From: an uncultured Ignavibacteria bacterium
GTDB lineage: Bacteria; Zixibacteria; MSB-5A5; CAIYYT01
Length of the DNA stretch: 64,000 nt
Direction: 5' to 3'
Assembly (NCBI GenBank): GCA_964617645.1
Contig: CAZTYE010000007.1
Location: 88,203-152,202 of the forward strand
In this document: one piece after another, positions 22,309 through 58,411 of the stretch
Position numbering within the stretch: the first letter of the stretch is position 1
How the letters are laid out: every line of letters starts with the position of its first letter
Notes under the pieces: model-generated
The model's input: the letters and a program-made list of their open reading frames with translations, nothing else
What the model was told of the DNA's origin: nothing
Databases searched by the model: none
Translations under genes and position numbers: made by a program

Positions 22309-22413
22309 GAAAAAGTTCATTAGCCCCATGAGGAGTGCTTCTTTAGGACTGTTGCTCACGACCGAAACGTCATTTGGATAGCGAATTTCGCTTTTCGACA
22401 GCGAGGTCTTAGC

Positions 22414-41918: not shown

Positions 41919-43847
41919 ATGCGCGTAACGCACGAAATGATCGCCAAGCAGGTTGTCTTCAACCTGTCCAACAACATCGAGCGCTTCTTCAAGCTCCAGA
42001 ATATGATGTCGACCAACCGGCGGATCAACAAAGTGTCCGATGATCCGATCGGCACGATCAAAGATCTGTCGTACCGCGAACGCCTGACCGAAATCGGCCA
42101 GTACAAGGCCAATATCGCGATTGGGTCGACGTGGTTGGCGTCGAGCGATCGTGCGCTCAATGACGTCAATACGGCGGTCGCCGACGCGCATTCGATTGCG
42201 GTCGAGATGTCGAACGACACGTTCGACGCCGTTGCGCGAAACGTCGCCGCGAACGAAGTGCAATCGTTGCTCGACCAGATTCTCGCCGCGGGCAATTCGC
42301 AGTTGCAAAACAACTATCTCTTCTCCGGTTATCGCACGCGCACGCAGCCGTTCGAGGCTTCGGGAACCGGTGTGGTCTATCGCGGTGACCAGGGAGTGAT
42401 CCAATACAGCATCGACGCCAAAGCCAAGGTGCAGGTCAACACGATTGGCTCTAACCTTCTGACCAAGCCCTTTCAGGTAATCGGCGCCGATTCGGACTTG
42501 AGCATCGGCATCGTCGGCGCAACGCCGCTGGCGATTCTCAATGCCGGGACAGGTGTCGACGCAGCGCCCGGCACCTTTGTGGTCCGAGACGACAACTTAA
42601 ATATCGCGGCGACAATAGACATCTCCGCCGCGACTACAGTCGCCGATGCCATTTCTGCGATCAACACGCAGCTTGCCGCCGCCGGGATCACGAACTTGAC
42701 GGCGTCGTTGGGACTGGAAGGCAACAACCTGCGCCTGGTGGCAACGGGTCGTCCCGAAATCTCGTTAACTACGCCGCTGGCTAACTTGAATCAGGGTACC
42801 GGCATCGACGCTAATCCCGGAAAGTTCACAATTCGCAACGGTTCGGGAACGATCACCGCGACGGTCGACTTATCGGCTGCGGTAACCATCGGGGATGCGC
42901 TCAACGCAATCAATACTCAATTGGCTGCTGCGGGCGCGACGAACGTGACGGCCGCTTTGAACGGAAGCGGGACAGCGATCGAAATCACCGATACCAACGG
43001 CGTGCCGTTGGGATTGTACATCGAAGAGAATTCCGCCTTTGACACGACGGCGCGAACTCTGGGTCTGGTCGGCTCGATCGGCGCGATCCTGACGGGTTTG
43101 CCGCTCGATCCGCGTCCGGCGTTCACGGTCAGCGAGTCAGCTTCCGGCGAAACCACCGCTGCGAATCTCGGGCTAATCGGATCGTTCACTTACAACCACA
43201 TCGGCGCGGCGCTTGAGCCGCAACTGGAACCGACAACGCTGCTGGCGCAAATCCAGAACAACCTCGGCGCGCCATTGGGCACGCTGCGCATCTCGCAAGG
43301 TGAAGCAAGCGTAGTCATAAACACGAGTAGCCCCGGCATCACGACGGTTCAAGACTTAATCGATGCGATCAACAACGCGGGGCTAAACATCACTGCGGCG
43401 ATCAATCCCGGCGCTACCGGCATTCAGATCACGAACAACGATCCGACCCGGACGCTGATGATTGCGAACAATGACGATCAACGTGTAGCGACGATGCTCG
43501 GCATCGCGGGAGCGGCAGATGTCCTGGGGACAATTATGCTGCTGGTGGACGCCCTGCGAAACGATGATCGCAAAACCGTCGAAAATCTTGTCGGCACGTT
43601 GGACACGGCGCTCAATGCCGTGCTGAACGAACGCGCTTCAGTCGGAGCCAAAGTGATTCGGATGGATACAACGCTGAGCCGACTGGAGGAATACGAAGTC
43701 AATTACACGAAGTTGCTGTCGGAAGTCGAAGACGCCGACATTACGAAACTGATCACCGATCTGGCCATGCAGGAAAACGCCTATTCGGCCGCGCTGAATT
43801 CGGCGGCAAAAATCCTGCAGCCGTCGCTGCTCAATTTTATCCGGTGA
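41919..43847 (+). CDS. flgL: flagellar hook-associated protein 3 FlgL (flagellin-fold, with internal repeats)
   Basis: N-terminus MRVTHEMIAKQVVFNLSNNIERFFKLQNMMSTNRRINKVSDDP, C-terminal flagellin-like helix. 642 aa with three internal ~80-aa repeats. Confidence 0.8.
   Translation: MRVTHEMIAKQVVFNLSNNIERFFKLQNMMSTNRRINKVSDDPIGTIKDLSYRERLTEIGQYKANIAIGSTWLASSDRALNDVNTAVADAHSIAVEMSNDTFDAVARNVAANEVQSLLDQILAAGNSQLQNNYLFSGYRTRTQPFEASGTGVVYRGDQGVIQYSIDAKAKVQVNTIGSNLLTKPFQVIGADSDLSIGIVGATPLAILNAGTGVDAAPGTFVVRDDNLNIAATIDISAATTVADAISAINTQLAAAGITNLTASLGLEGNNLRLVATGRPEISLTTPLANLNQGTGIDANPGKFTIRNGSGTITATVDLSAAVTIGDALNAINTQLAAAGATNVTAALNGSGTAIEITDTNGVPLGLYIEENSAFDTTARTLGLVGSIGAILTGLPLDPRPAFTVSESASGETTAANLGLIGSFTYNHIGAALEPQLEPTTLLAQIQNNLGAPLGTLRISQGEASVVINTSSPGITTVQDLIDAINNAGLNITAAINPGATGIQITNNDPTRTLMIANNDDQRVATMLGIAGAADVLGTIMLLVDALRNDDRKTVENLVGTLDTALNAVLNERASVGAKVIRMDTTLSRLEEYEVNYTKLLSEVEDADITKLITDLAMQENAYSAALNSAAKILQPSLLNFIR
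42531..43030 (+). repeat. two tandem ~250-nt (83-aa) protein-level repeats inside flgL; a third degenerate copy at ~43313-43450
   Basis: ILNAGTGVDAAPGTFVVRDDNLNIAATIDISAATTVADAISAINTQLAAAGITNLTA aligns with NLNQGTGIDANPGKFTIRNGSGTITATVDLSAAVTIGDALNAINTQLAAAGATNVTA. Confidence 0.55.
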
Positions 43848-43853
43848 GGGACA

Positions 43854-44333
43854 ATGGAACTGCAAACGCGTCAATTTGGAATGATTCAGGTCGCCGAAGG
43901 CGAAATCCTCTCCGTCCCACGGGGGCTGCTCGGCTTCGAGGGCTTTGAGCGCTTCGTCTTGATCGACTCGCCCGACTGCCGGCCGTTCCGCTGGTTGCAG
44001 TCGGTCGACGCGCCCGACCTGTCCTTCGTAGTCGTCAATCCGACCGTGTTCTTTCCCGAATACCGGGTGACGGTACATGCCAAGGAAGTTGCCGATATCA
44101 ATGTTGCGCAGCCACAGGACGTAGAAATCTTCGTCATCGTCACCGTGCCGGAACACTGGGAAGAGATGTCGGCCAACCTGCAAGGGCCCATCTTGATAAA
44201 TCGGCGCAACAATAAGGTCAAGCAATTAGTGCTGACCGACTCGAGCTACGGCGTGCAGCATTCGATTGCCCGCCAGTTGGAACGCACTCGCGTCGAGGTC
44301 GCATCGGGAAACGCGATCGTTACAATTTCGTAA
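43854..44333 (+). CDS. fliW: flagellar assembly factor FliW (CsrA antagonist)
   Basis: MELQTRQFGMIQVAEGEILSVPRGLLGFEGFERFVLIDSPD…PFRWLQSVD signature; 159 aa. Confidence 0.85.
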   Translation: MELQTRQFGMIQVAEGEILSVPRGLLGFEGFERFVLIDSPDCRPFRWLQSVDAPDLSFVVVNPTVFFPEYRVTVHAKEVADINVAQPQDVEIFVIVTVPEHWEEMSANLQGPILINRRNNKVKQLVLTDSSYGVQHSIARQLERTRVEVASGNAIVTIS

Positions 44334-44384: not shown

Positions 44385-45959
44385 ATGAGCCCGTCGAACT
44401 CAGCGCGAATCAACTCAGAGACAGTTCCATCAGTCGCCGACCAGATCGCAACGCTACTGGAGACGGCAACCGCGGCGGCTAACCGCGGCGATTTCCAAGC
44501 TGCCGGACTTACATTGCGCAGTGCCTGCGCCCAAATGCCTTTAGTGCACGATCTGTGGTTACAGTGCGCCGATCTACTTCACCGTAGCAGTGACCTCGAA
44601 TCGACCGAGGCATGCCTGCGCGAGGCAATCTCCTTTCATCCGCGAAGCCGGGAGCTCAATCACAGTCTGGGCTTGATTCTCATGCAGGCAGGGCGGAGCG
44701 CAGAAGCTAAAGAGTACTTGGAGAACGCGCTCTCCTTGGCGCCCGAAAACGTTGACGTGCTCAATGACTATGCGGTATTACTCGACCATCTCGGCGAATT
44801 CGATGCTGCTCTTGACCGATACGCAACGGGATTGACGCTGGCCGATGTCAGCCGGAAACTGGTCGCTAACTACATCGATTTAGCGCGGCGATTACGAAGC
44901 CGCGTGGATTTCGACCGCGCTACTGCGGTTTACCGCTCCAAGTGGGGCGCCGACAGCGAATCGTTCGAATGGGAGACCGTTGCCGGCGCCGTGACGCCGA
45001 TTGCGACGACACCACGCCGAGCCAAAATCGCGTTTTTCGCGTCGAGCAAAACTTTCATCGATTCAACGATCCGAGAGTTGCAAAAACATCACGAAGTGCG
45101 GGTCGTGGAACGCCTCGACAATTCGCTCATGCAGTCAACGCTCCAGTGGTGTGATTTGGCTTGGATCGAGTGGTGCGATCAGTTTGTAATTGCCGCATCC
45201 AAGCTGCCGAAGACCTGCAAAATCATCTGTCGCCTGCACAGCTATGAAGTGTTCACCGACTTACCGCGACAGGTGGATTGGAGCAAAATCGATCACCTCG
45301 TCTTGGTGAACGAGTCAGTCAAAGAGCTGCTCGCCTATAACACTCAAATATCTACGCCGACCAGCGTGATTTATAATGGCGTAGATATCGACAAGTTCAC
45401 GATACCGGCGAATAAGGTTCGCAGTAAGAGCATCTGCTCAATCGGCTACATTAACTACAAGAAGAATCCGGCGCTGCTGCTTTACTGCTTTAAGGCCATT
45501 CATGAGTGGGATCCGGAATTCACGTTTCATATCGCCGGTGAGCATCAAGACGCGCGCATTCAGGTCTATTGGGCACATCTCCTGCCAAAGTTGGGAATTC
45601 CGCTGCAATTTGACGGCTGGACCCACGACGTCCCCGAATATCTGCGCGACAAGGACTATGTGATCTCGACGTCGCTGTTCGAGTCATTTCACTATTCGAT
45701 TGCCGAGGGCATGGCATCCGGAGCGCTGCCGCTGATCCATGACTGGTTCGGCGCCGACAAGCTTTATCCGCGTGAATTTTTGTTCACGACGCCCGCTGAT
45801 TGCCTTCGATTGCTGAGGGAACTCGAGACTCAGGATCGTTGCCGCCTGCAACAAAGTTGTCGCCGTCATATCGTCTCGAGATTCGATCAGAAGAAGCAAC
45901 AGAGGCTTACGGAAAACCTAATTGATCAAGTTCTCTGGGGCAAGAGTGGGGAAGCATGA
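44385..45959 (+). CDS. TPR-repeat + GT-B (family 4/GT1-like) glycosyltransferase
   Basis: N-terminal TPR repeats. C-terminal glycos_transf_1-like EGMASGALPLIHDWFGA motif. Confidence 0.7.
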   Translation: MSPSNSARINSETVPSVADQIATLLETATAAANRGDFQAAGLTLRSACAQMPLVHDLWLQCADLLHRSSDLESTEACLREAISFHPRSRELNHSLGLILMQAGRSAEAKEYLENALSLAPENVDVLNDYAVLLDHLGEFDAALDRYATGLTLADVSRKLVANYIDLARRLRSRVDFDRATAVYRSKWGADSESFEWETVAGAVTPIATTPRRAKIAFFASSKTFIDSTIRELQKHHEVRVVERLDNSLMQSTLQWCDLAWIEWCDQFVIAASKLPKTCKIICRLHSYEVFTDLPRQVDWSKIDHLVLVNESVKELLAYNTQISTPTSVIYNGVDIDKFTIPANKVRSKSICSIGYINYKKNPALLLYCFKAIHEWDPEFTFHIAGEHQDARIQVYWAHLLPKLGIPLQFDGWTHDVPEYLRDKDYVISTSLFESFHYSIAEGMASGALPLIHDWFGADKLYPREFLFTTPADCLRLLRELETQDRCRLQQSCRRHIVSRFDQKKQQRLTENLIDQVLWGKSGEA

Positions 45960-48571
45960 GCAAGCGAACTAAGGGCCGCACGGCGAAGAAGAATAGAGCG
46001 ACCGAAGCAGTCACCGACCCCGCAGAATTGACCGAGTTGTACAGAGCGGGAAACTATCGCAAGTGCTGGGATTGTGGTCGCGGTCAGCAGCTTCCTGACT
46101 CCGCCGGCGATGCCATTCTCGCAGTTGTCTGGAGCGGCTTCAGGCTCGGCTGCCTGGAACCGGCCGCCGGATTGCTCAGTCGATCGAGGGAACAGGTGCC
46201 GAGCTTTCGCCGCGCAGTTGCGTCTGCCGTCCTCGCGCATGGCGCAGGTGAATTCACCGAGTGCGTGGAGATCGCGCACGCAGTGCTTACGAATGATCAG
46301 GATCTAATCTCCGGCCTGACAGCCTCCGGACACCAATTCGAAGAAACCCGTGAATTCGTCACCGCAGTCGCGAACTCACTTCTACAGTTGCGGAAGCCGC
46401 AGGCGGCGGAAGAACTATTGCGCCGGGCCATATCGATCCGTGACAATGTCGCTGAATTCTACATTGAGCTTTACCAAATCGCGCGCCGTGAGGCCGATCA
46501 AGAGAAGCAACGGCGGATCTTAACTGATGGCATGGTGCGGGCCGCTCATAAGGACGACTTGGCAAAATTCGCCGCAAACTTGCTTGGTGAGCAACGCATC
46601 TCGGTGTGCATGATCGTCAAGAATGAGGAGAAGCTGCTCCCGCGAGCGCTGGCCAGCATTCACGAATTGGCCTACGAGATTATCGTGGTCGACACCGGCT
46701 CGACGGATCTGACGGTTGAGATCGCCGAGAGTTTCGGAGCCAAGGTCTTTCATCATGAATGGCAGAACGATTTTTCGCTCCACCGCAACCAGTCGTTAGC
46801 TTATGCAACCGGCGAGTGGGTGATGATTCTCGACGCGGACGAAGAACTTGTCGGCCAAGACGTCGGTAGACTACGGCAGGCGCTCTTAATCCCGAATCTC
46901 AACATTCTCTCGATCTCCGTGCACAACCAGCACCTGCGTACCGGTGAGACTACATCGTTTTTGCCGTCAGTCCGTTTGTGGCGCCGCAAGTTGAATCTCC
47001 ACTACGAAGGCATCGTCCACAACGAGCTGCGATTGCCGCCGACAGAACCGATCCTGCGCGTTGATGTCCGGCTAAACCACTTCGGTTACGGCCTTGACTG
47101 GGAGCAAATGAAGACGAAGATCGCGCGCAGTCGGGCGCTGCTGGAACAGCAGCTTGCGGACAACCCGAACCATGCATTCGCCAACTTCAATTTGGCACAA
47201 CTGCTGCGTGGCGAGTCGCAGAATCCATCTGCGGACACCTGCCGCAGGATAATCGAGCATGCCGGTCGGACCGTGAAATTCACCGATCCAGACAATCGGG
47301 ATCAGCGTCACCTGCACTTGATGGCGCTGGATCAGATGACGACCGCTTACTTCTATCTGAAAGATTATGAAAATGCCGAATCGTGCGCAAAACGCGCACT
47401 CGCGATCGACCCCGGTTATCTTGATCCGCTGTTCGCATTGGGGCATATCTATGCCGCACAACGCAACTTTGACGAGGCCATTCCCGCTTACCGGAATTTC
47501 ATTACCGCCGCCAACGCCTACGATCCCGGAAAAGAAACGACGAATTTTATACTACAGCACAGTCAGGATCAAGCATCCGCACACTTTGCGCTCGGGCTGA
47601 TTTACGAAGAGAAGCAAGATTGGGCCGCCGCCGAGTCGCATTTCCTGCAAGCATCCAAACTTCGCGAGCACCATCAGGACGTCGACACGCACCTGGCGTA
47701 CATCGCCTACCGGCGGGGCGAGTATGATACGGCGCAGAAGTATGCCGAACGACAGCTTAGGTCAACCGAGACTGATGTCCCGGCTCGATGGCTGTTGGCG
47801 AAGATTGCGCGCGCACGCGGCCTTTCGGCTGACGCACTTCGGCAATGTGAGATTATTCTGCAACATCATGCCGACCACAATCAAGCGCAGCAACTCAAGA
47901 TCGAGCTTCTCCGCGAACTGGGAAAGGAATCCGCCGCTGCGGCTGCGATTGATCAGGCGCTAAGAGCTGATCCGGAGAATCCGACGGTGCTCAATCAGCA
48001 AGCGGAAATGCTCATCGCGAGCGGCCGGCACGAGCAGGCGTTGGCAGTGTACAGCCGCCTTGTAAAGCACAACGCTCAAGACGCCGAGACGCACAACAAT
48101 ATCGGCAATTGCTACTACCGCCTCTGCGATTACGCCGCGGCGGCTCGCGCTTATGAACTCGCGCTTTCGATTCGGCCGCAGCTTGTGCCGGCGCTGAGAA
48201 ACCTCGGCCTGACGTATTGTAAGCTCGATGATCCGGCGGCGGCGATTGCGCATCTCAGTCGCTACCTCGACTACGCCAAGGGTGATCTTGAGATCGAGTA
48301 CCTGGTCGCGCGCTTGCTCTTCGATCTCAATCGCTACAGCGAGGCGATTCACTTTGTTGAGCGCGGCCTGCAGAAGCATCCGCGTTCAGCGGAGTTGGTC
48401 GCGTTTCTTGCCGACTGTTACAACCGTTTGGGACACTTCGATAGCGCGCGGCTCGGATACCGGCAGGCGCTGCAGCTCGATCCGAGCATGACGCAAGTGC
48501 GCGACATTCTCTCGCAACTCGAAACACAGTTGGCGCAGACGTCGAAAATCCCGGTGGTAAAGGAGCGCTAA
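45956..48571 (+). CDS. TPR-GT2-TPR glycosyltransferase (candidate flagellin O-glycosyltransferase, FgtA-like architecture)
   Basis: Central GT-A/GT2 domain (CMIVKNEEKLLPRALASIHELAYEIIVVDTGSTD…ILDADEEL) flanked by many TPR repeats. ATGA start/stop overlap with the upstream gene. Confidence 0.75.
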   Translation: MSKRTKGRTAKKNRATEAVTDPAELTELYRAGNYRKCWDCGRGQQLPDSAGDAILAVVWSGFRLGCLEPAAGLLSRSREQVPSFRRAVASAVLAHGAGEFTECVEIAHAVLTNDQDLISGLTASGHQFEETREFVTAVANSLLQLRKPQAAEELLRRAISIRDNVAEFYIELYQIARREADQEKQRRILTDGMVRAAHKDDLAKFAANLLGEQRISVCMIVKNEEKLLPRALASIHELAYEIIVVDTGSTDLTVEIAESFGAKVFHHEWQNDFSLHRNQSLAYATGEWVMILDADEELVGQDVGRLRQALLIPNLNILSISVHNQHLRTGETTSFLPSVRLWRRKLNLHYEGIVHNELRLPPTEPILRVDVRLNHFGYGLDWEQMKTKIARSRALLEQQLADNPNHAFANFNLAQLLRGESQNPSADTCRRIIEHAGRTVKFTDPDNRDQRHLHLMALDQMTTAYFYLKDYENAESCAKRALAIDPGYLDPLFALGHIYAAQRNFDEAIPAYRNFITAANAYDPGKETTNFILQHSQDQASAHFALGLIYEEKQDWAAAESHFLQASKLREHHQDVDTHLAYIAYRRGEYDTAQKYAERQLRSTETDVPARWLLAKIARARGLSADALRQCEIILQHHADHNQAQQLKIELLRELGKESAAAAAIDQALRADPENPTVLNQQAEMLIASGRHEQALAVYSRLVKHNAQDAETHNNIGNCYYRLCDYAAAARAYELALSIRPQLVPALRNLGLTYCKLDDPAAAIAHLSRYLDYAKGDLEIEYLVARLLFDLNRYSEAIHFVERGLQKHPRSAELVAFLADCYNRLGHFDSARLGYRQALQLDPSMTQVRDILSQLETQLAQTSKIPVVKER

Positions 48572-49659
48572 TGATGCGAGTTGAATTGTGCGCGTTCGAT
48601 GCGACCAAGGCGAATGATCTACTGATGCGAATCCCGCACCATGTGCAGAACACGGCGGCATGGTTCGATTTCGTCCACGAGTTCAGTGGCGAAGAAGAAG
48701 TCTCGATCGGCTTTGCAATTGGCGGAGAATTCCGAGGCTTTGTGCGCGCGCTACGATTCAAGAATCTCATTCAGTCATTGCCGTATCCGGCAAGCTATTC
48801 GGGACCGGTGTTTGATCCGGAGGTCGGAGAAGGAGAGCGAATCGCTTGCCTCAATCTGCTCATCGAACACCTCGCCACACGCTGCGACGTTTTTTCAATC
48901 ACCGGTTCGCCGCTCATGCGCCAGGATTTCACCGGTATAACAGAATCGGTGCATGTGTTGCGTAACCGCATCGACGTAATCGACCTCAGCGCGCCGCCGC
49001 TCGCCGGCACAACATCCAAATTTCGCAACAATCTCAAGCGGAACTTGCGCAAAGCGGAAGCCGCCGGTGTCCGCGGCAAGCTACAGCACGATACCGAGCT
49101 GCTCGGCCGCTGGTATCAGGTTTACGAACGGCGTATGCGGCAGTTGAACGCGCCGACCCTGCCGCTGCGCTATTTCGAATTGATGTTCCGTCACCTGCAG
49201 CCGCACGGCCAAGTTGCCCTGCTCAGCTCGCTCAGCGGAAAAGAATATTTTGGGGGGACGATTGTCGTCTACAATCGACATTGCGCCGACTATTACCTCA
49301 GCGTCTATGACCGCGAATACGACGATCTACAGGCATCAACTGCCGGCCTCCACTTCTTAATTCACTGGCTGAAATCGCAGAGCGTCACGCTGTTCAACCT
49401 GCAGGCGTCGCCATCAACTCAAGGCGAGTTGGCGCACTTCAAACAATCGTGGGGCGCGCAGAGTCGTGAGCATGTCTACACTTCAGCAGTCCTAAATTCC
49501 GCGACAAACTTGTTGCAGACAATGCCGAAAGAAATTCGACAAAGTTATCCGTTTCACTTTGTCGTGCCATTCTCTGCTCTGGTGAACTGCCCGTCAGCGG
49601 GGCCGGTGGAGTTCGCAACGGACGATTCGCAGTGCGGCAAGGAGGTTGCAACGCCATGA
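48571..49659 (+). CDS. FemAB-like / GNAT-fold acyltransferase family protein
   Basis: 362 aa. Architecture and motifs resemble the FemAB-type (Acetyltransf_6-like) family often found in glycan loci. Weak assignment. Confidence 0.45.
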   Translation: MMRVELCAFDATKANDLLMRIPHHVQNTAAWFDFVHEFSGEEEVSIGFAIGGEFRGFVRALRFKNLIQSLPYPASYSGPVFDPEVGEGERIACLNLLIEHLATRCDVFSITGSPLMRQDFTGITESVHVLRNRIDVIDLSAPPLAGTTSKFRNNLKRNLRKAEAAGVRGKLQHDTELLGRWYQVYERRMRQLNAPTLPLRYFELMFRHLQPHGQVALLSSLSGKEYFGGTIVVYNRHCADYYLSVYDREYDDLQASTAGLHFLIHWLKSQSVTLFNLQASPSTQGELAHFKQSWGAQSREHVYTSAVLNSATNLLQTMPKEIRQSYPFHFVVPFSALVNCPSAGPVEFATDDSQCGKEVATP

Positions 49660-50678
49660 TTTCAGGAAAGACGATTTTCATTACCGGCGGCGCCGGGTTC
49701 ATTGGCTCGGCGCTGGCAGAACGGCTGGTCGAGGATAATCGCATAATCATTTATGATAATTTCCGGCGCAATTCGCTTGTCGACAAGTCTTGGCTGTCGT
49801 CGCACCGCAACATCGAACTGGTCGCTGGCGACATTCGCGATCGCGGCGCGCTCACGCATGCCATCGCCGGCGCAAACATCGTGATTCACGCGGCGGCGAT
49901 TGCCGGTGTCGACTCGGTGCTTCGCGACCCGGTGGGGACAATGGAAGTCAATGTCATCGGCACCTACAATGTGTTCATGACGTGCCTCGAATCCTGCGGG
50001 CGGCTGGAGCGTGTAATCGACTTTTCAACCAGCGAAGTATTTGGCGCTTACGCCTACAAAGTCACCGAAGAGAACCTCAAGCCGGCGCTCACCGTTGGTG
50101 AGGCACGCTGGTCTTATGCCGTCAGCAAACTGACCGGCGAGTTCTTCGCCAACAGTTTTTTCAGCAAACACGGGCTGCCGATTGTCTGCGTGCGGCCGTT
50201 CAATATTTATGGACCGGGCCAAGTCGGCGAAGGCGCCATTCACCATTTCGTCGTGAATGCCATTCAAAATCGCGACCTGACAATTCATGCCGACGGCAGC
50301 CAAATTCGCGCCTGGTGTTACATCGACGATATCCTCGACGCGCTGGTGGAAATTCTCTCCAACGATCGCGCCATCGGTCACGCATTCAACATCGGCAATC
50401 CGAAAAGCACGGTCACGATTTATCATCTCGCCCGCGAAGTCATCCGCGTGGCACAGTCGCGATCGGGATTGGTGTTCAAGGAGATGACCTCGCCGGACGT
50501 CGAAGTGCGCATTCCGGACATCCACAAGGCCCGCGAAATACTGGGATTTGAGCCGTTAGTCGAGTTAGAGGATGGTCTCAAGCGGACAATCGACTGGTAT
50601 CGACAGAAGCTCAACGGCGGTCTTGAACCGCGTCGCCGCGCACTGAAAATCAAAGAGGGAATTGGCCATGCCGTCTAA
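49656..50678 (+). CDS. NAD-dependent sugar epimerase/dehydratase (extended SDR)
   Basis: Rossmann motif FITGGAGFIGSALAERL and catalytic YxxxK (YAVSK). Confidence 0.85.
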   Translation: MISGKTIFITGGAGFIGSALAERLVEDNRIIIYDNFRRNSLVDKSWLSSHRNIELVAGDIRDRGALTHAIAGANIVIHAAAIAGVDSVLRDPVGTMEVNVIGTYNVFMTCLESCGRLERVIDFSTSEVFGAYAYKVTEENLKPALTVGEARWSYAVSKLTGEFFANSFFSKHGLPIVCVRPFNIYGPGQVGEGAIHHFVVNAIQNRDLTIHADGSQIRAWCYIDDILDALVEILSNDRAIGHAFNIGNPKSTVTIYHLAREVIRVAQSRSGLVFKEMTSPDVEVRIPDIHKAREILGFEPLVELEDGLKRTIDWYRQKLNGGLEPRRRALKIKEGIGHAV

Positions 50679-51705
50679 AATCACACTTGCCGCAAAACCG
50701 TGGGAACGCTTCTATGGATTTGCCAACGACAACGACAAGATTTTCCCCAACATGGTGCATCTGGATCTGATTAATATCTGCAACTTTCGATGTATCCACT
50801 GTCCTCAGCACGATATCAAGAAGTTTGTGCCCGACTACCAGCAAAACCAACTGGATTGGGATGTCTTCACCCGCGTCATCGACGAAGTCGCCGAACATGG
50901 CGCGACACTGCGCATTACCTGCGACGGTGAGCCATTCCTCTACAAGCACATCGTTAAAGCGATTCACTACATCAAGGATCGTGGCGTCAAAATCGCTACG
51001 ATCGTGACTAACGGTAGCGCGCTGAGCAAGCCAATTGCCGAGGCGATCCTGCGGCCTTCCGCGACGAAACTCGTCATCGACTTCAGCCTCGACAGCCTGT
51101 ACAAGTCGACTTACGAGAAAATCCGCCTGCAGGGGAACTTCGTTGAAGTGTACAGCAATGTGCTGTTCCTGCTGAAAAATCGATCGCTGAATCCTAATCT
51201 GCGCATCATCGTAAACATGATTGATCAAGACACTTTGGAAGCAGGCGAGCTGGAATCATTTGAGAAATTCTGGCGCCCGATCGCGGACGACGTGGTTGTG
51301 CGCACGTATCTCACGGTCAAGGGTATGGTCAACTCTTCGACTCTGCGGATGGATGATGACCAATATCGCTGGCCCTGCTCCTTGCTTTGGAATCGCATTT
51401 CGGTGTCGTCGCACGGTCGGCCGCGATTTTGCGTCGCCGATTGGCGTGAACAGTCGGCTTTTCGCGACTTCGACTTGCTCAAGATGTCAATCAAGGAAAT
51501 CTGGCAATCGGATCGCTACGATAAGTTGCGAAAGATCCATCTTGACAGGGAATTCTCGAAAATCAGGATTTGCGAACACTGCACCGATTGGTTCGGTCTG
51601 AAGTGGGATTATGACTACCGCACGTTGATTGACAAGCTCTTCGCCCCGAAGGAGCGCATCTCTGAAGCGTCCCGGATCTCAGTGGAGGCTCCGGTCAATG
51701 TCTGA
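50668..51705 (+). CDS. radical SAM enzyme with C-terminal auxiliary Cys cluster (SPASM/twitch-like)
   Basis: CNFRCIHCPQ (CxxxCxxC). C-terminal Cys-rich block CSLLWNRISVSSHGRPRFCVADW…ICEHCTDW. Confidence 0.75.
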   Translation: MPSKITLAAKPWERFYGFANDNDKIFPNMVHLDLINICNFRCIHCPQHDIKKFVPDYQQNQLDWDVFTRVIDEVAEHGATLRITCDGEPFLYKHIVKAIHYIKDRGVKIATIVTNGSALSKPIAEAILRPSATKLVIDFSLDSLYKSTYEKIRLQGNFVEVYSNVLFLLKNRSLNPNLRIIVNMIDQDTLEAGELESFEKFWRPIADDVVVRTYLTVKGMVNSSTLRMDDDQYRWPCSLLWNRISVSSHGRPRFCVADWREQSAFRDFDLLKMSIKEIWQSDRYDKLRKIHLDREFSKIRICEHCTDWFGLKWDYDYRTLIDKLFAPKERISEASRISVEAPVNV

Positions 51706-54118
51706 GGCTGTGACGATCCATGCCTTCGGTGAGCAAAACGCGGTTGCGGCATGGCTGAATCCATACTGCGACCTGCAATCCTCTACAGCCAAAGTTGTTG
51801 TCCGCCACGAAGGAGAATTCCAACTCGCCCGCTCGCAACAATTGCTCTCGAACGATAGCTGCCTGTGGATCGATCAACTCGACGCCGCGGTGGTAAGATT
51901 GACGCAAGTCGGAGTGCAGCATCGGGCGAGAACGATTCTGCGGGTTGAGTCATCGGATTTACTCGATAATGACCTATCGCAAATGCGCTGGGAGTTCTTC
52001 GACGCCGTCGTGCCGTCGGACAAGCTGGCGGAGGCCCTGCTCTTTGATGTCTGCGATCGTATCGAATCGTTCACGCGCGTTGTGCAACTGCCGATGGCAC
52101 TTGCCCTACCACATCTGGCCGTGGCCGACAAACGGCCGACCAAGACAATTGCCTACCGCGGGGCCTTGCGCCGTGACAATCGTTCGGAAATGCTGCTGCA
52201 ATTGCTCGCGGCGCTCGCGCGAGTCGATGCTCAATTCCGCTTGGTAATCGTTGGTGAATTCGAAAGCCGGAGTTGGCAAGCACATTTCGAGACGATGATT
52301 CAGGCGATGGGCTTGGCCGAACAGATCCGTTTCGAAGTGGCGCCACCGGACTGGATCGCATGGTATCGCGATAAGGATGCCATTATGCAACTGACGACAG
52401 ATTCAGTAAGCAGGCAGACGACACTTCTCGCTATGGCTTGCGGAGTCCGCCCAGTCGTTTACCGGCACTTTGGCGCCGAAAATCACTACATGCCCGACAT
52501 GATATTCTCGTCACTCGATGACGCCGCGCAGTTGATTCGGCACAGCCCGTGGGAACCGTTACGCTGGCGCAATCAGATCAGCGAACAACAAGATCCCGAG
52601 CAGAACTACGCCCGCTTCCGATCAATCGTGGAATTCGCGTCGAGCGAGGCGAGTCCCATGGTAAGCATACTGCTCCCTACTTTCAACCGGGCCAAAATGC
52701 TGGAGGGTACGTTGGCGCGGCTCGGCCGGCAGACATATCGCAACATTGAGATCGTGGCGGTTGATGACTGCTCCGAAGACGAAACACCGGAGGTACTGGC
52801 ACGGGCCGCCCGAGCCGATTCCCGTGTAGTCACGAGCAGAAACCCAGTGAATGAAGGCAATGCGCGAGCGATGGCGACTGCCGCGCGGATGGCTGCCGGC
52901 GAGTTCGTACTGGTATTCTCCGACGATGACGATTTGGCCGAAGACGCCGTCGAGAAGCTGGTCGAGTGCGTTCGCCGCAAACAACCGGATCTGATTTACT
53001 CCAATCTCGAAATCATCGACCAGAATGGCAATTCGCAAGGAGTGTGGCAATATCGCAATTATTACGACACGCGCGACCTTCTTCAGCGACTTGTCGCCAA
53101 CGACGGCAACTTGATCCCGGAAGTGTTTTTCTGCCGGCGCGAACTGTACGCGGAACTATATGAGGAAACGTACTCCCGGCGATTTCTCAACACCTATTAC
53201 CTGCCGCATCTTCGCCGACTGCGGATGCTTCATCTGCCGCTGCCGCTATATCGCTACCGCGTCCACGGCGGGAGCACGTTCAGTTCAGCCCGAGGATTGC
53301 TTGATCGCAGCAAGTCAACACAAAATTACATCAATGCGGCGTTGTTCATGTACTCGCCGCTGAACATTTTCGGCGGCAACTCGCAGAGCACGGTTGTCGA
53401 GCAATACGCTGCGGCATGCTATCAAGCGGCCGAACTGCTCATCGCGTTGGGAGACCGGCATCGTGAAGGCCGGAATTATGCCGGAGCCGAATTCACCGCG
53501 ACAGATCGATTATGGTGGGTGTACTACTTTAATGCCTTTCATTGGCTCATGCAGGCGAAGTTGCACAGCGACGATCATCGGATTCACGATGGGCTTCAGG
53601 CAAAGATCCTTGCCGAGTGCGACCCGGGTGCATTCAATCCCGAGCGGGATACGGCCTTGCCGAGTTTCTATCGAGAACTGCCGTGGTTCGCGAACAAGGG
53701 GTTCAATAATCTCGGTGATTTTGTCGCGCTCGACATGCTGACCATGGGCGCCAAGCCACCTCTGGATCAAAGCAGCTATACACTTTGGCGTGGTGGCAAG
53801 GCACATCTGCGCGCCGAGAACCGCATCGCCACTGACATCGACCAAGCAATCACCGAGTTGGAATCAAGGCCGATTACGGCAGTAAACGTCTGCGACGCAA
53901 AATATCTTGCGCCACTACTCAGTTACTTGATTGAGAACGGTCGACTGGCTGTGAACGTAATGAATCTTGCCGGGATTACGATTCCACAGCTTGAGACATA
54001 TCGCAACCTCTTCACTCCGGAAATTCCGATAGTATCGTTCGCCGACTATCTTCGCTGGATCACCAATGTAACGACGAGATGTAACTATGCGCGTTCCGTT
54101 GTCGAAGCCGCTGTTTGA
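51698..54118 (+). CDS. multi-domain glycosyltransferase (GT-B-like N-terminal region + GT2 domain + ~350-aa unknown C-terminal domain)
   Basis: GT2 motif SILLPTFNRAKMLEGTLARLGRQTYRNIEIVAVDDCSED…FSDDDD. N-terminal region resembles a glycos_transf_1 C-terminus. 807 aa. Confidence 0.65.
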   Translation: MSEAVTIHAFGEQNAVAAWLNPYCDLQSSTAKVVVRHEGEFQLARSQQLLSNDSCLWIDQLDAAVVRLTQVGVQHRARTILRVESSDLLDNDLSQMRWEFFDAVVPSDKLAEALLFDVCDRIESFTRVVQLPMALALPHLAVADKRPTKTIAYRGALRRDNRSEMLLQLLAALARVDAQFRLVIVGEFESRSWQAHFETMIQAMGLAEQIRFEVAPPDWIAWYRDKDAIMQLTTDSVSRQTTLLAMACGVRPVVYRHFGAENHYMPDMIFSSLDDAAQLIRHSPWEPLRWRNQISEQQDPEQNYARFRSIVEFASSEASPMVSILLPTFNRAKMLEGTLARLGRQTYRNIEIVAVDDCSEDETPEVLARAARADSRVVTSRNPVNEGNARAMATAARMAAGEFVLVFSDDDDLAEDAVEKLVECVRRKQPDLIYSNLEIIDQNGNSQGVWQYRNYYDTRDLLQRLVANDGNLIPEVFFCRRELYAELYEETYSRRFLNTYYLPHLRRLRMLHLPLPLYRYRVHGGSTFSSARGLLDRSKSTQNYINAALFMYSPLNIFGGNSQSTVVEQYAAACYQAAELLIALGDRHREGRNYAGAEFTATDRLWWVYYFNAFHWLMQAKLHSDDHRIHDGLQAKILAECDPGAFNPERDTALPSFYRELPWFANKGFNNLGDFVALDMLTMGAKPPLDQSSYTLWRGGKAHLRAENRIATDIDQAITELESRPITAVNVCDAKYLAPLLSYLIENGRLAVNVMNLAGITIPQLETYRNLFTPEIPIVSFADYLRWITNVTTRCNYARSVVEAAV

Positions 54119-55280
54119 CGGCGCTGAGCAGCGAGCAGTTTGCGAAGTTCTCGACTCGGGCTGGGTTATGCAGGGAAGTCGAGTTGCTGAACTGGAGCGC
54201 CGCTTTGCTGCATTTGTGGGGACACCGTGGGCAATCGCGACATCCTCATGCACAACGGCGCTGCATCTTGCAATGCGCGCTATCGGCGTCAGCCCGGGCG
54301 ATGAAGTGATCGTTCCCTCGTTGACCTGGGTAGCGACGGCCGCTGCCGTCGAGGAGTGCGGTGCGGAGACCGTCTTTGCCGATAGCCGGTTGGACACCTA
54401 CAACATGGACATCGAACACGCGCGTTCGCTCATCACCAGTCGTACGCGCGCCATTGTTGCCGTTAGCCTTTTCGGGCTTGCGGCAGATCTACCAGTCTTA
54501 ACTAAGTTGTGCGATGAGCATGGAATTATCTTGATCGAGGACGCAGCTTGTTCTTTGGGCGCGACTTGTGGCGGTCGACAAAGCGGCGGCTTTGGTCGCG
54601 TGGCTTGTTTCTCTCTGCATCCACGAAAGTCAATCACTACCGGTGAGGGAGGCGTTATCGTTGGCGCTGACGCGCGCGACGAAAGATATCTTCGACGAGC
54701 GCGCTCTCACGGCATCATTCTTCCCAGCGAAGGCGAATCGCTACCGCCCCATGAGATGGGAGATGTCGAACTCTGCGGCTACAATTATCGCTTGACGGAT
54801 CTACAGGCTTCACTCGGATTGGCGCAATTCGACAAACTAAGCGACATCCTTCGCCGCCGCCGCGAAATCGCCAGCATCTATACACGTGCCTTCTCAGATT
54901 TGGAGGGAATCAACACGCCGTTCGAGCCGGCAAGCTGCCGTCACAGTTATCAATCGTATGTCTTGCTTGTGACGGCGCCAACCGGCGACGATGCTGAATC
55001 CGAGCGCTTGCGTAACGCGATGATGATCCAACTCGAACGACGCGGAGTTTCAACTCGCCCCGGAACGCATGCTGTACATAGTCTGTCCTACTTTCGCGAC
55101 AAGTACAAACTGCATCGCAGGTCGCTCCCGAATGCTTATCGGGCCATGACGCGGACAATCGCGCTGCCGCTCTATCCTTCGATGACGCAAAGTGAAACAT
55201 GTTACGTCATAGAATCGGTGAGAGCGGTGTACGAGGAGATATTTACCTCGGTGAATAGCGGAACGTGTGGCGGCGATTGA
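54087..55280 (+). CDS. DegT/DnrJ/EryC1/StrS family PLP-dependent sugar aminotransferase
   Basis: N-terminus LSKPLFDGAEQRAVCEVLDSGW. PLP-Lys region SFHPRKSITTGEGG. Confidence 0.85.
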   Translation: MRVPLSKPLFDGAEQRAVCEVLDSGWVMQGSRVAELERRFAAFVGTPWAIATSSCTTALHLAMRAIGVSPGDEVIVPSLTWVATAAAVEECGAETVFADSRLDTYNMDIEHARSLITSRTRAIVAVSLFGLAADLPVLTKLCDEHGIILIEDAACSLGATCGGRQSGGFGRVACFSLHPRKSITTGEGGVIVGADARDERYLRRARSHGIILPSEGESLPPHEMGDVELCGYNYRLTDLQASLGLAQFDKLSDILRRRREIASIYTRAFSDLEGINTPFEPASCRHSYQSYVLLVTAPTGDDAESERLRNAMMIQLERRGVSTRPGTHAVHSLSYFRDKYKLHRRSLPNAYRAMTRTIALPLYPSMTQSETCYVIESVRAVYEEIFTSVNSGTCGGD

Positions 55281-55459
55281 AGTTGTTCAAGTTCTGAACA
55301 GCGCCTCGCGAGCATGAACCAACCTTGTCGCGAAGCACCACGGCAGAGCCGATCGCACCGGGACAGTGGGAATGAGCAATCAGAGACGTTAGAGTTCAAG
55401 TTATCGCGGTTCGCCGCCGAATTACTCTTATGTGACTGACAATTTCGCGCTTGCGCCCC

Positions 55460-55486
55460 TTTAGGGGCGTTCACTTGTGCCGATAA
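55460..55486 (+). promoter_or_regulatory. putative sigma-28 promoter for fliC (weak -35 TTTAGGGG, N11, perfect -10 GCCGATAA)
   Basis: GCCGATAA at 55479-55486. Predicted ~200-nt 5'UTR containing several GGA motifs, including AGGAGGA at the RBS. Confidence 0.4.
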
Positions 55487-55699
55487 TCTGAGCGTAAGAA
55501 AAAGTGAATCGATAGGGTTCATACGGTAACAGAAAAGAGGTCTACGCATCCAAACGGACCCCACTAACCGGGGACCACAAGCGGTTAGAAGGTCGAGTTG
55601 CTCCGGCCTTGGCAAACATCGGACGTCGCTGAATGCAGCGAGCAGTAGTAGAAATGTCGGAAACGGAATCCGACAGGGAAATTCAAGGAGGATGGTTAA

Positions 55700-57892
55700 A
55701 TGTCACTGCGCATTAACCACAACATAGCTGCACTGGATGCTCAGCGTAACTTGGCCATGACCACGCGCTCGATCAGCGGCGTCATGGAGAAGCTGTCGTC
55801 CGGCTACCGCATTAACCGCGCCGCCGATGATCCGGCCGGCCTGGTTATTTCCGAACAGTTCCGGGCTCAGATCGCCGGTCTCAATCGCGCGATCCAGAAT
55901 TCGGAAGGTTCGATCAACATGATCCAGACCGCGGAAGGTTCACTCAACGAAATCAACTCGCTGTTGGTCTCGATGCGCGAACTGGCCATCCACGCGGCCA
56001 ACGAAGGCTTCAACGACGCCAATCAGTTGGCTGCCGACCAGGCCGAAATCGAAAACGCGATCAAGACGATCGATCGTATTGCCGCGAACACGCAGTTCGG
56101 CACGAAGAAGCTGCTGGACGGCACCAAGGACAATATCGCGACAATCACGACCGCCAATTCGTCCGGTCTCACCGTGCTCAAGAGCTTCCTGTCTTCGGGA
56201 AGCCACTCGATCACCGCGACCAAGACCGCCGATTCGACTGCGACGATCAACACCACGTCGCTGGGCATTTCGCTCAATTCGACCGGCTCGCCGAGCAATC
56301 TCGAAGAGAAGATTCACAATCTCAACGTATTGCAGGCTTCAGCCGGCGCCGAGAAGACCTCGAGCGCAATGGCGATTAGCGACGCCTTCGGCAACGGCAT
56401 GACCATTGCCGCCACCGCTCAGTACGCCACCGTGTTCAGCGCCGCTTCGGTGCTGTCCGCCGCAACGGCGTCTCATGCCGGCACGTACACCGTCGTCCTG
56501 AACTATCAGGAAAACAACGAAGCCGTCTCCGGCGATCAGACCTTGCAGGTCGCGATTGCCGCGACGGACACTCGTGCCGCCATCATCAACAAGTGGAATC
56601 AGGCGATTGCCAACAATTCGTCGTTGGCCGGCAAGATCACTGTTGCCACGACGACTTCTGGCACCGGCCAGGGCATTCAATTCCGCGCCGTCAACAAGGG
56701 CGCTCAGTATTCGTTGAAGCTGACGTCGGCGACGACAACGGCGTCTTCGAATTACATGAGCATGGGCGCCAGCCGCTCCAGCCGTGGCGTGAGTTTGAAC
56801 GTGTTGAACTTTACGGTTACCACCGCGAAGAACAACAACACGACCGCAGCCGTGACCGTAGCGGCGTCGACCTATAGCTCGATGTCCACATTGGCGACCG
56901 CCATCCAGACCGGCTTAGCTTCCGCGTTTGGCACGGTTTCCACAGGCGCCGGCCAGACTTCGACGACCAACGACGTCGATGTTTCGGTTTCCGGCACCAG
57001 CCAGTTGAAGTTCTTCACCTATGATGAAGGCTCCGACTACAAGATCAAGCACAATTCCACGGGCACCGAATCCGAGCGTCTGTTCAACGCCCTCGGCCTG
57101 AGCGCCGACACGTTGTCGATCTCGGGTGCTGACGCGCTCGTGTCGTTTGACGGCTACACTTCGGCCGTGACGTCGGTCAAGTACGGCTCGACTTCAAATG
57201 TCACGCTGTACAACAAGGCCGCCGGCAGCGCCGGCCGTGGTTCGATTGCGTTGACGGTCGGAAAGGCGTCCAACGGTCTCAACGTTGGCAACCTGCTGCT
57301 TGACGTAAAGGCCGCCAAGTTTGACGTTCGTCTCGATGCCGGACCGGCTACCTCCGTGACGGCGGGAAAGGATGCGACCGTTTATAATTCGGATCGCACC
57401 CAGTCCTTGAACATTCGTTACGCACTGACCTCCAACGGTGGTTCGGAATCGATTACGAACACGGATCAGTCGCTGGTGTTCCAGATCGGCGGCAACGTCG
57501 GTCAGACCGCGGCGATCGGCCTGCGCAACATGACAACTTCCGCGTTGGGCAAGAACCTCGCTGGAAACTCATTTAGCAGTCTGGCCTCGATCAACGTCGA
57601 AACCGTCCTTGGCGCTCAGGACGCCCAGGCCGTGATTGACGCTGCGATCGACGAAGTCTCCAACGCTCGCGGTACGCTGGGTTCGTTCCAGAAGAACACT
57701 CTGGAATCCAATCTGCGCAACTTGCGAGTCGCTGCACAGAACCTCACGGCTTCCGAGTCCGGCATTCGTGACACCGATATGGCGTCCGCGATGTCCGATT
57801 TCGTGAAGAACCAGATCCTGCTTCAGGCTGGTACCGCCATGCTTGCGCAAGGCAACCAGTTGCCGCAGGTCGTGCTGTCTCTGTTCAGCTAA
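55700..57892 (+). CDS. fliC: flagellin (730 aa; conserved D0/D1 termini with very large Ser/Thr/Ala-rich central variable region)
   Basis: N-terminus MSLRINHNIAALDAQRNLAMTTRSISGVMEKLSSGYRINRAADDPAG. C-terminus …DFVKNQILLQAGTAMLAQGNQLPQVVLSLFS. Confidence 0.9.
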   Translation: MSLRINHNIAALDAQRNLAMTTRSISGVMEKLSSGYRINRAADDPAGLVISEQFRAQIAGLNRAIQNSEGSINMIQTAEGSLNEINSLLVSMRELAIHAANEGFNDANQLAADQAEIENAIKTIDRIAANTQFGTKKLLDGTKDNIATITTANSSGLTVLKSFLSSGSHSITATKTADSTATINTTSLGISLNSTGSPSNLEEKIHNLNVLQASAGAEKTSSAMAISDAFGNGMTIAATAQYATVFSAASVLSAATASHAGTYTVVLNYQENNEAVSGDQTLQVAIAATDTRAAIINKWNQAIANNSSLAGKITVATTTSGTGQGIQFRAVNKGAQYSLKLTSATTTASSNYMSMGASRSSRGVSLNVLNFTVTTAKNNNTTAAVTVAASTYSSMSTLATAIQTGLASAFGTVSTGAGQTSTTNDVDVSVSGTSQLKFFTYDEGSDYKIKHNSTGTESERLFNALGLSADTLSISGADALVSFDGYTSAVTSVKYGSTSNVTLYNKAAGSAGRGSIALTVGKASNGLNVGNLLLDVKAAKFDVRLDAGPATSVTAGKDATVYNSDRTQSLNIRYALTSNGGSESITNTDQSLVFQIGGNVGQTAAIGLRNMTTSALGKNLAGNSFSSLASINVETVLGAQDAQAVIDAAIDEVSNARGTLGSFQKNTLESNLRNLRVAAQNLTASESGIRDTDMASAMSDFVKNQILLQAGTAMLAQGNQLPQVVLSLFS

Positions 57893-58351: not shown

Positions 58352-58411
58352 GATGTATGCGGTTGGGCCGCGATCGCAGCCCAACCGACTTCGGTGGTAA
58401 GGAGCAAGACT

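Follow-up and report, generated by a model that had tools for sequence, protein, structure and literature searches.

A 64,000-nucleotide stretch of contig CAZTYE010000007.1 (assembly GCA_964617645.1), referred to below as the window, was analysed from an uncultured Ignavibacteria bacterium assigned to the Zixibacteria in the GTDB lineage. Between the flagellar gene fliW and the flagellin gene, the window carries a block of seven consecutive open reading frames (ORFs; 44385–55280, plus strand), designated G1 to G7, which probably constitutes a cytoplasmic protein O-glycosylation operon for the flagellar filament. A preliminary description of the same DNA had proposed a flagellin glycosylation island at this place. 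That proposal is supported by the synteny in related genomes, by the likeness of two of the glycosyltransferases (GTs) to the flagellin-modifying enzymes GmaR and FlmG, by the solubility of the encoded enzymes, and by the lack of lipid-carrier genes in the block. The number of genes had been given as eight; the ORF count is seven, as is the number of items in the earlier list itself. More tentatively, and with less than even confidence, the gene content suggests a filament O-glycan with a 4-amino sugar that is N-aminoacylated by a Fem-type enzyme and oxidised or epimerised by a BtrN-like radical S-adenosylmethionine (SAM) enzyme.

Organisation and Conservation of the Operon

The coordinates of the block and of the features related to it are listed in Table 1. 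The G1 stop and G2 start codons share ATGA at 45956, those of G3 and G4 share ATGA at 49656, and the G2/G3 junction is TAATG at 48571. The remaining genes overlap by 11 nt (G4/G5, 50668–50678), 8 nt (G5/G6, 51698–51705), and 32 nt (G6/G7, 54087–54118). All six junctions claimed previously were reproduced exactly from the ORF coordinates. Shine-Dalgarno-like motifs lie within the upstream gene for most of the internal starts, the motif being weaker for G2 and weak for G7. In places, the ORF list offers earlier GTG or TTG codons; only the ATG is preceded by a Shine-Dalgarno-like motif (AAGGAGG, GAGGG, or GGAGG). Because nearby flagellar genes are also tightly packed (overlaps of 29 nt for flgA/flgH and 4 nt for flgI/flgJ), the run of six overlaps was attributed to an operon and not to a statistical oddity. 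A scan of the plus strand for sigma-70 promoters and terminators inside the block, itself a weak one, returned nothing convincing; a block free of such signals fits a single transcript, which is weak evidence.

Table 1. Coordinates and assignments of the operon genes and of the associated features in the window.
Feature	Position	Strand	Description
csrA	41427–41765	+	Pfam CsrA, E = 2e-24; between flgK and flgL in all relatives
fliW	43854–44333	+	Pfam FliW, 133 bits; NCBIfam FliW above cutoff; 52-nt gap to G1
G1	44385–45959	+	524 aa; N-terminal tetratricopeptide repeats (TPR) and C-terminal GT-B (GT4-like) glycosyltransferase
G2	45956–48571	+	871 aa; GT2 (GT-A) domain and long C-terminal TPR array
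G3	48571–49659	+	362 aa; Fem-family double-GNAT transferase
G4	49656–50678	+	340 aa; short-chain dehydrogenase/reductase (SDR) of the extended type, predicted nucleotide-sugar 4-oxidase (decarboxylase or dehydratase type)
G5	50668–51705	+	345 aa; BtrN-like radical SAM enzyme, single-cluster twitch-type auxiliary domain
G6	51698–54118	+	806 aa; multidomain glycosyltransferase
G7	54087–55280	+	397 aa; DegT-family pyridoxal phosphate (PLP)-dependent sugar aminotransferase
Flagellin promoter(s) and conserved leader of ~200 nt	55397–55699	+	Sigma-28-type elements, hairpins
Flagellin, presumed acceptor	55700–57892	+	730 aa; Flagellin_N and Flagellin_C
Second DegT aminotransferase	63074–64000	+	Ends at window edge; best PDB match ArnB, 248 bits over 294 aa

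The block is embedded in a cluster of late flagellar genes with the upstream order flgF, flgG, flgA, flgH, flgI, flgJ, flgN, flgK, csrA, flgL, and fliW, and the downstream order flagellin, flaG, fliD, fliS, a FliT/FlgN-like gene, a small ORF, a gene for an HDOD protein, and a second DegT gene. G5 homologues of at least 58% identity were confined to metagenome-assembled genomes (MAGs) labelled as Zixibacteria or 'uncultured Ignavibacteria'. The arrangement flgK-csrA-flgL-fliW-[block]-flagellin-flaG-fliD-fliS was found in all of the approximately 12 related contigs long enough to judge, which span 58–83% identity of the radical SAM protein. The preliminary description had named an operon unlinked from flagellar genes in relatives as a refutation; no such unlinking was seen in these contigs. 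Even the 32-nt G6/G7 overlap is kept in contigs L001 and L002. The sole rearrangement concerns G1, which in a single sublineage, represented by L002 (14691–15980) and L003 (13940–15229), follows the DegT gene and is shorter (429 aa); this relocation points to glycosyltransferases being shuffled around fixed sugar genes. Within the block, identity across relatives was highest for the SDR and radical SAM proteins (73–83%) and lowest for the GTs and the Fem-type protein (34–56%), G4 being the most conserved gene (73–81%). The G+C content of the block (0.53–0.57) is the same as that of the flanks. The earlier word 'inserted' is apt for the position between fliW and the flagellin gene, not for a recent acquisition: recent horizontal insertion was rejected on account of the lack of a GC deviation, the lack of adjacent mobile-element genes, and the position kept in all relatives.

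The domain calls made previously were all reproduced by profile annotation with Pfam and NCBIfam, and the proposed content of amination, acylation, and radical SAM enzymes was confirmed (G7, G3, and G5, respectively). In a hydrophobicity comparison with membrane-protein controls of the same window, no transmembrane segment was detected in G1–G6, and the marginal hydrophobic stretch of G7 (maximum Kyte-Doolittle value, KD19, of 1.76) was far under these controls. No Pfam matches to a priming phosphoglycosyltransferase (Bac_transf), flippase (Wzx), polymerase (Wzy), chain-length regulator, or exporter/ABC genes were obtained in the block.

Glycosyltransferases

G2 is a candidate flagellin-priming O-glycosyltransferase. 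Pfam places a Glycos_transf_2 domain at residues 216–332 and many TPR models at approximately 470–860, the C-terminus being entirely TPR. Among the structures in PDB, GmaR (22ao_A, E = 8.7e-28, residues 215–402) was the best match to the GT domain, with SunS and related S-glycosyltransferases, including ThuS, next. The DxD motif is present as DAD at 293–295. GmaR of Listeria monocytogenes is a flagellin O-GlcNAc transferase, as demonstrated by experiment, in which a GT domain precedes a TPR domain proposed to recognise flagellin (PMC9638930). G2 shares with it a homologous GT-A domain, the DxD motif, and the order of the two domains; it differs in its length of 871 aa with an extra N-terminal region of about 215 aa, in a much longer TPR array, and, unlike GmaR, in being encoded together with sugar-tailoring genes in one operon. 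The earlier remark that enzymes of the TPR-GT2 architecture are known flagellin O-glycosyltransferases agrees with the closeness of the G2 GT domain to GmaR. Bifunctionality of the GmaR type entails a C-terminal antirepressor domain and a MogR partner; no MogR-like gene was noticed, in an analysis that included no comparison aimed at either of them.

G1 was matched in Pfam by TPR_19, TPR_2, and related models at residues of about 24–160 and by Glycos_transf_1 and Glyco_trans_1_4 at about 344–456; its PDB matches were confined to the TPR part (OGT-type TPRs). In FlmG of Caulobacter crescentus, a flagellin pseudaminic acid transferase, the TPR half binds flagellins and sugar transfer is carried out by the GT-B half (PMC7591256). 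In G1, too, TPRs at the N-terminus are combined with a GT-B domain at the C-terminus, a likeness that is one of domain architecture only and was drawn from the published description. It differs from FlmG in that no genes for pseudaminic or legionaminic acid biosynthesis were found in the window or just beyond. NeuB/PseI, CMP-nonulosonic acid synthetase, and Maf had no Pfam match in the window, where the annotation covered most ORFs of at least 130 aa, and no nonulosonic acid genes were present in about 10 kb past the window end in two relatives, L166 and L167; this negative covers the window and approximately 10 kb beyond it in relatives, and the rest of the genome may hold such genes. The preliminary description, which had reported no pseudaminic or legionaminic acid synthase genes, is upheld to this extent, and the donor is therefore probably not a nonulosonic acid.

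G6 combines a weak Glyco_trans_1_4 match (half of a GT-B-like region) with a Glycos_transf_2 domain (95.7 bits, Pfam). The latter resembles chondroitin and heparosan synthases and has a DDDD motif at about 408–411. The N-terminal 170 aa and the C-terminal 298 aa of G6 had no Pfam match.

Nucleotide-Sugar Enzymes

G4 belongs to the Pfam Epimerase family (160 bits) and has the motifs GGAGFIGS, STSE (124–127), and YAVSK (154–158); STSE and YxxxK are also motifs of UXS and ArnA. Its nearest solved relative is PDB 8vr2_A (E = 1e-107, approximately 50% identity), which carries a generic name only and no functional one, and for which no associated publication was found in the literature. The 8vr2 protein is about 60% identical to the SDRs of contigs L016–L019 and L004, which are the counterparts of G4 in the gene module of other phyla described below. 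It was deposited together with two DegT aminotransferases, 8vr3 and 8vr5. The best characterised PDB matches of G4 were the UDP-glucuronate decarboxylase UXS1 (142 bits) and then dTDP-glucose 4,6-dehydratases (approximately 108 bits). In NCBIfam, its best score was 148 bits versus a cutoff of 365 (dTDP-glucose dehydratase), and the ArnA score was 102 versus 777.

G7 is a DegT_DnrJ_EryC1 protein (357 bits, Pfam) with ArnB (216 bits) and perosamine synthetase (201 bits) as the best PDB matches. The PLP-binding lysine is present (K181 in SLHPRKS), and the protein was therefore assigned as an aminotransferase and not as a dehydratase. Its NCBIfam scores were 277 versus a cutoff of 423 for PseC and 244 versus 631 for ArnB. 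Judged by these profile scores, G4 and G7 are relatives, not members, of the ArnA/ArnB or RmlB/LegB/PseC equivalogs. Since no equivalog cutoff was reached, their substrates are assigned by analogy. A close analogue is the pathway of UDP-4-amino-4-deoxy-L-arabinose (Ara4N), formed by the C-terminal part of ArnA and by ArnB: ArnB is the best solved match of G7, UXS1 is the best characterised match of G4, and G4 has the STSE and YxxxK motifs. The two systems differ in that G4 and G7 remain under the equivalog cutoffs, in the absence here of ArnC, ArnD, ArnT, and a formyltransferase domain, and in the destination of the product, which is lipid A in the known pathway and presumably protein in the case of the block. 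The 'deoxy-sugar' of the preliminary description lacks firm ground, as the product is no less likely to be a 4-amino-pentose of the Ara4N type.

G3 was matched by Acetyltransf_6 (51.8 bits, Pfam), its N-terminus having no Pfam assignment. When a profile of G3 and its homologues was compared with PDB, all nine matches were Fem or aminoacyl-tRNA-dependent enzymes, including FemX (4e-9), FmhB (2e-8), an aminoacyl-tRNA-dependent peptide synthase, and FemA. The family-invariant F290-K291 of G3 aligns with F304-K305 of FemX, in which Lys305 is the catalytic residue (PMC12945691). The AlphaFold2 (AF2) model of G3 (predicted local distance difference test, pLDDT, 84) has a double-GNAT fold; its best structural matches were Sba18/Sbb17 (TM-score 0.78 on the target), then FemX, FemA, and MprF. 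The Sba18/Sbb17 structures are of aminoacyl-tRNA-dependent enzymes crystallised with the amino sugar streptothrisamine, and the homologous enzyme Orf11 of the BD-12 pathway transfers glycine from Gly-tRNA onto streptothrisamine (PMC12945691). The fold and the conserved catalytic lysine are common to G3, the streptothricin-type enzymes Orf11/Sba18, and FemX, the last of which has a UDP-linked acceptor, as is proposed for G3 with a nucleoside diphosphate (NDP)-amino sugar; sequence identity to G3 is just 13–17%. Because of the Fem profile, the conserved lysine, the fold match to Sba18/Sbb17, and the UDP-linked acceptor of FemX, G3 is best read as a predicted aminoacyl-tRNA-dependent N-aminoacyl transferase acting on an NDP-amino sugar. 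The earlier assignment, a FemAB/GNAT-like acyltransferase, was confirmed by the profile and fold, which allow the more precise designation of a Fem-type enzyme, probably dependent on aminoacyl-tRNA.

G5 has the radical SAM motif CX3CX2C (C38, C42, and C45) and four auxiliary cysteines (C237, C255, C302, and C305) in the arrangement CX12GX4C...CX2C. These seven cysteines were invariant across 18 sequences, with no additional conserved cysteine. Four auxiliary cysteines indicate a single auxiliary 4Fe-4S site (twitch) and not the seven-cysteine full SPASM domain. BtrN was the best PDB match of the G5 profile (E = 1e-16), spanning both the core and the twitch domain, and ranked first in Foldseek (4m7t, E = 1.8e-11) for the AF2 model of G5 (pLDDT 82). 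Of the former designation radical SAM/SPASM, the first half stands, and the second should be replaced by a BtrN-like twitch domain. BtrN, which acts as a radical SAM dehydrogenase in the butirosin pathway, is thus the closest solved relative by profile and fold and has the same four-cysteine twitch pattern. The BtrN/BtrS pair is also alike in having a DegT-family aminotransferase as partner: G5-family genes adjoin DegT genes and are fused to one in P0231. BtrN differs in its low identity to G5 (approximately 15%) and in its aminocyclitol substrate, as against a presumed nucleotide sugar for G5. By analogy, G5 could just as well be an epimerase like NeoN, itself an epimerising radical SAM enzyme, as a dehydrogenase of the BtrN type.

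The G5 family is large. An exhaustive profile search recovered 2,120 clusters at 50% identity (E ≤ 1e-30), and natural fusions to a WbqC domain, a DegT aminotransferase, and a sugar-type formyltransferase were found among the larger matches (P0221, P0231, and P0285). The presence of homologues beside SDR and DegT genes in many phyla, together with these fusions, places G5 in NDP-amino-sugar chemistry, apparently independent of the Fem step. The DegT fusions are consistent with a two-electron oxidation of a secondary alcohol to a ketone by G5, without being proof of it. Several other members of the family, of about 460–580 aa, have an unannotated N-terminal extension of approximately 200 aa.

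The Sugar Module in Other Phyla

The SDR-DegT-Fem-radical SAM unit recurs elsewhere at 32–41% G5 identity, usually as contiguous genes. It was found in Zixibacteria, Ignavibacteriota, Gemmatimonadota, Nitrospirota, Omnitrophota, and Acidobacteriota. In a Gemmatimonadales MAG, the module is flanked by GTs and abuts a convergent flgL-fliW pair. In a Nitrospiraceae MAG, it is located approximately 9 kb from csrA-fliW, and the protein encoded after it, of more than 1466 aa, has multiple GT domains as well as TPRs. The copy in a Melioribacter roseus MAG is followed by genes for a multi-GT/methyltransferase protein of 1726 aa and for a TPR protein. SAR11 genomes contain SDR-radical SAM-DegT without a Fem gene. 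In L004 and in Magnetospirillum fulvum, the radical SAM and SDR copies are located alongside formyltransferases or WbqC and a Wzx-type flippase or an O-antigen-type ABC transporter. The sugar module thus appears to be a mobile cassette serving both flagellar and non-flagellar glycans. A polysaccharide-deacetylase/WbmS-like gene directly follows the radical SAM gene in L004 (5835–6566) and L019 (10972–11688), two distant loci, and is thus another recurring partner of the module; the operon of the window has none.

Proposed Pathway

Gene structure, homologies, motifs, folds, synteny, and distribution are direct results of the analysis; from them we infer the substrates, the order of the steps, the identities of the sugar and the amino acid, and the glycosylation itself, and the chemical details of the following pathway are offered as possible rather than probable. 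G4 would oxidise C4 of an NDP-sugar, likeliest by converting UDP-glucuronic acid to a UDP-4-keto-pentose with decarboxylation, as in ArnA or UXS, or alternatively by 4,6-dehydration of an NDP-sugar. G7 would transaminate the 4-keto sugar to a 4-amino sugar, and G3 would acylate the amine with an amino acid from an aminoacyl-tRNA. G5 would act on the nucleotide sugar either by BtrN-like two-electron oxidation of a hydroxyl to a ketone or by NeoN-like epimerisation, of which the oxidation is favoured because of the DegT-radical SAM fusion. The same fusion would also permit another order of steps, with G5 in place of G4 as the source of the keto substrate for the aminotransferase. In the pathway proposed, G2 and/or G1 would dock on flagellin via their TPRs and attach the first sugar or sugars to Ser/Thr of the surface-exposed central domain, and G6 would extend the glycan chain, all of these steps taking place in the cytoplasm prior to flagellin export.

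The flagellin glycosylation islands of Pseudomonas syringae, Pseudomonas aeruginosa, and Burkholderia produce N-acylated 4-amino-4,6-dideoxyhexoses of the viosamine type with TPR-GT2 enzymes of the FgtA type. The block resembles them in combining an SDR and a DegT enzyme for a 4-amino sugar, N-acylation, and soluble GTs, encoded beside the flagellin gene, for transfer onto Ser/Thr of flagellin. It differs in its acylating enzyme, a Fem-type and predicted aminoacyl-tRNA-dependent transferase in place of one dependent on acyl-CoA or acyl carrier protein, in its radical SAM enzyme of the twitch type, and in its three GTs, each of a different class.

Alternative Explanations

Several observations weigh against flagellin glycosylation or against the pathway drawn for it. 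The support for flagellin modification is genomic, and the organism is uncultured. The Ser/Thr content of the flagellin core does not set it apart: residues 151–640 (490 aa) contain 27.6% Ser+Thr, compared with approximately 13% in the N-terminal 150 residues, and the local peak is 46%. The Ser/Thr-rich centre pointed out in the preliminary description does exist; as evidence taken alone it is weak, because the variable domains of flagellins are often Ser/Thr-rich. The sugar enzymes all score below the NCBIfam equivalog cutoffs. The assignment of G4 is ambiguous, since the top NCBIfam models are those of dTDP-glucose 4,6-dehydratase and LegB and the PDB matches favour UXS1. Genes for a nucleotidyltransferase or a UDP-glucose dehydrogenase are absent from the vicinity, which means that the starting compound must be a sugar of the common pool. 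Finally, distant copies of the module are found in polysaccharide loci with a Wzx-type flippase (L004) or an O-antigen-type ABC transporter (L005), which implies that the sugar is not flagellum-specific in general.

The operon might glycosylate other flagellar or surface proteins (FliD, FlgL, or FlgK), or might represent a general cytoplasmic O-glycosylation system riding in a late flagellar operon. TPR domains alone do not dictate flagellin as the target, FliD and FlgL are both long proteins with a fairly high share of Ser/Thr, and the operon follows flgK-csrA-flgL-fliW and is separated from the flagellin gene by the latter's own promoter. Since the closest characterised relatives of both TPR glycosyltransferases act on flagellin (GmaR being related by sequence and FlmG by architecture only), and the block always lies immediately upstream of the flagellin gene, such other targets are considered unlikely. 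An envelope polysaccharide locus (lipopolysaccharide, exopolysaccharide, or capsule) or a flagellar sheath locus placed among flagellar genes by chance is quite improbable. The distant SDR-Fem-radical SAM homologues accompanied by a Wzx-type flippase and formyltransferases (L004) or an O-antigen ABC transporter (L005), and the DegT and PglC-like pair located approximately 8 kb downstream in relatives, would agree with a locus of this kind. The block itself, however, is devoid of a priming phosphoglycosyltransferase, flippase, polymerase, chain-length regulator, and exporter; G1–G6 are without transmembrane segments, two of the three GTs bear protein-binding TPR domains, and the position beside the flagellin gene is fixed in all close relatives.

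A cluster for a ribosomally synthesised and post-translationally modified peptide (RiPP), in which a small secreted peptide would be the substrate of an S-glycosyltransferase resembling SunS, a radical SAM/SPASM maturase, and a peptide aminoacyl transferase resembling Fem proteins, was also considered. G2 does match the SunS model of NCBIfam (72 bits) and the SunS/ThuS structures, Pfam calls the C-terminal domain of G5 SPASM, and many of the NCBIfam matches of G5 are peptide maturases. Yet the SunS score is far from its cutoff of 350 bits and GmaR is a better match for G2; G5, with its four auxiliary cysteines of the twitch type, is closest to BtrN and has relatives embedded in or fused to sugar enzymes; the block leaves no room for a precursor-peptide gene and has no protease or exporter; and the SDR and DegT enzymes would be without a role. 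A RiPP or glycocin cluster, a most improbable reading, was rejected on account of the SunS score below the cutoff, the twitch domain, the lack of room for a precursor, and the unexplained SDR and DegT genes. On the genomic evidence, none of these alternatives fits both the gene content and the synteny as well as flagellin O-glycosylation.

Novelty and Significance

Flagellin glycosylation islands are of a known kind. What appears new is the host lineage, the occurrence of GmaR-like, FlmG-like, and multidomain GTs together, and the presence in the sugar pathway of both a Fem-type transferase and a radical SAM enzyme of the twitch type. To our knowledge, no Fem-type enzyme has been placed in a protein-glycan or flagellin pathway, and the literature searches likewise returned none; full-text searches yielded no paper linking Fem-type or radical SAM enzymes to flagellin glycosylation or to each other in sugar pathways. 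If the proposed pathway is correct, it would be the first protein-glycan pathway with tRNA-dependent and radical SAM chemistry, and the SDR-DegT-Fem-radical SAM module would stand for a class of nucleotide sugars that is widespread and as yet uncharacterised. Filament assembly, motility, and recognition by phages and by the immune system are all affected by flagellin glycosylation, and most knowledge of its chemistry comes from a small number of pathogens in culture; the locus would carry it into an uncultured phylum. The four-gene module, found in several phyla and, in three of them, near flagellar genes, offers a soluble and easily expressible set for enzymology and could serve as an annotation marker for flagellar glycan loci that now bear generic names only. 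The locus is valuable mainly as a lead for enzymology, and the ambiguous starting sugar is one of its main limits.

Flagellin Gene and Its Leader

The flagellin gene appears to be transcribed separately from the operon, with a sigma-28 promoter of its own. Two tandem sigma-28-type elements precede it, with the −10 sequences GCCGAATT at 55416–55423 and GCCGATAA at 55479–55486, and the flagellin promoter of relatives has the form TAAAG-N15-GCCGATAA. A GC-rich hairpin at 55453–55469 may terminate the operon transcript. The leader of approximately 200 nt is highly conserved (L002 and L007–L015) and contains hairpins at 55589–55610 and 55656–55674, the first of which shows one AU-to-GC compensatory change in L014 and the second of which has GGA in the loop. 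The second hairpin is followed by AGGGA and then by the Shine-Dalgarno sequence AAGGAGGA at 55685–55692. No known RNA family was detected in the leader by comparison with Rfam. CsrA is the partner of FliW in the translational control of flagellin, and in the FliW-CsrA-flagellin circuit CsrA acts on the flagellin leader; by analogy, the leader looks like a target of CsrA-binding control of this kind.

Two further flagellar proteins of the window are unusually long and could be additional glycosylation targets: FlgL (41919–43847), with 642 aa and a Flagellin_IN motif, and FliD (58394–60763), with 789 aa and 20% Ser+Thr. A 105-aa ORF (61680–61997) between the FliT/FlgN-like and HDOD genes has a weak match to FlgM (anti-sigma-28; E = 0.017), and its position is kept in L166 and L167.

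Second DegT Gene and Other Features of the Window

The second DegT gene, reported earlier to start at 63074, was confirmed at that position. In the relatives L166 (10001–11773) and L167 (10001–11797), the corresponding gene is followed by a small Bac_transf gene (PglC-like) and then by thrS-infC-rplT-pheST. Because a PglC-like gene and then housekeeping genes follow it, the second DegT is probably not part of the operon's pathway and serves a separate, undecaprenyl-phosphate-linked amino-sugar glycan. A metagenome scan with this protein returned matches of at most 52% identity.

Elsewhere in the window, mostly unannotatable ORFs occupy 16739–23292; among them, the minus-strand ORFs at 18450–21370, without Pfam match, adjoin a pair of ABC transporter genes and the gene of a protein that weakly matches a cohesin domain. 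The region 1805–7466 encodes a 460-aa protein whose C-terminal part is an AHH nuclease domain of the polymorphic-toxin type; two large ORFs (of 798 and 520 aa), without Pfam match, come next. A tRNA gene is located on the minus strand at 5768–5840, and at 7964–9864 archease and the RNA ligase RtcB are encoded by a gene pair whose stop and start codons overlap; a prepilin peptidase gene is present at 23428–24216.

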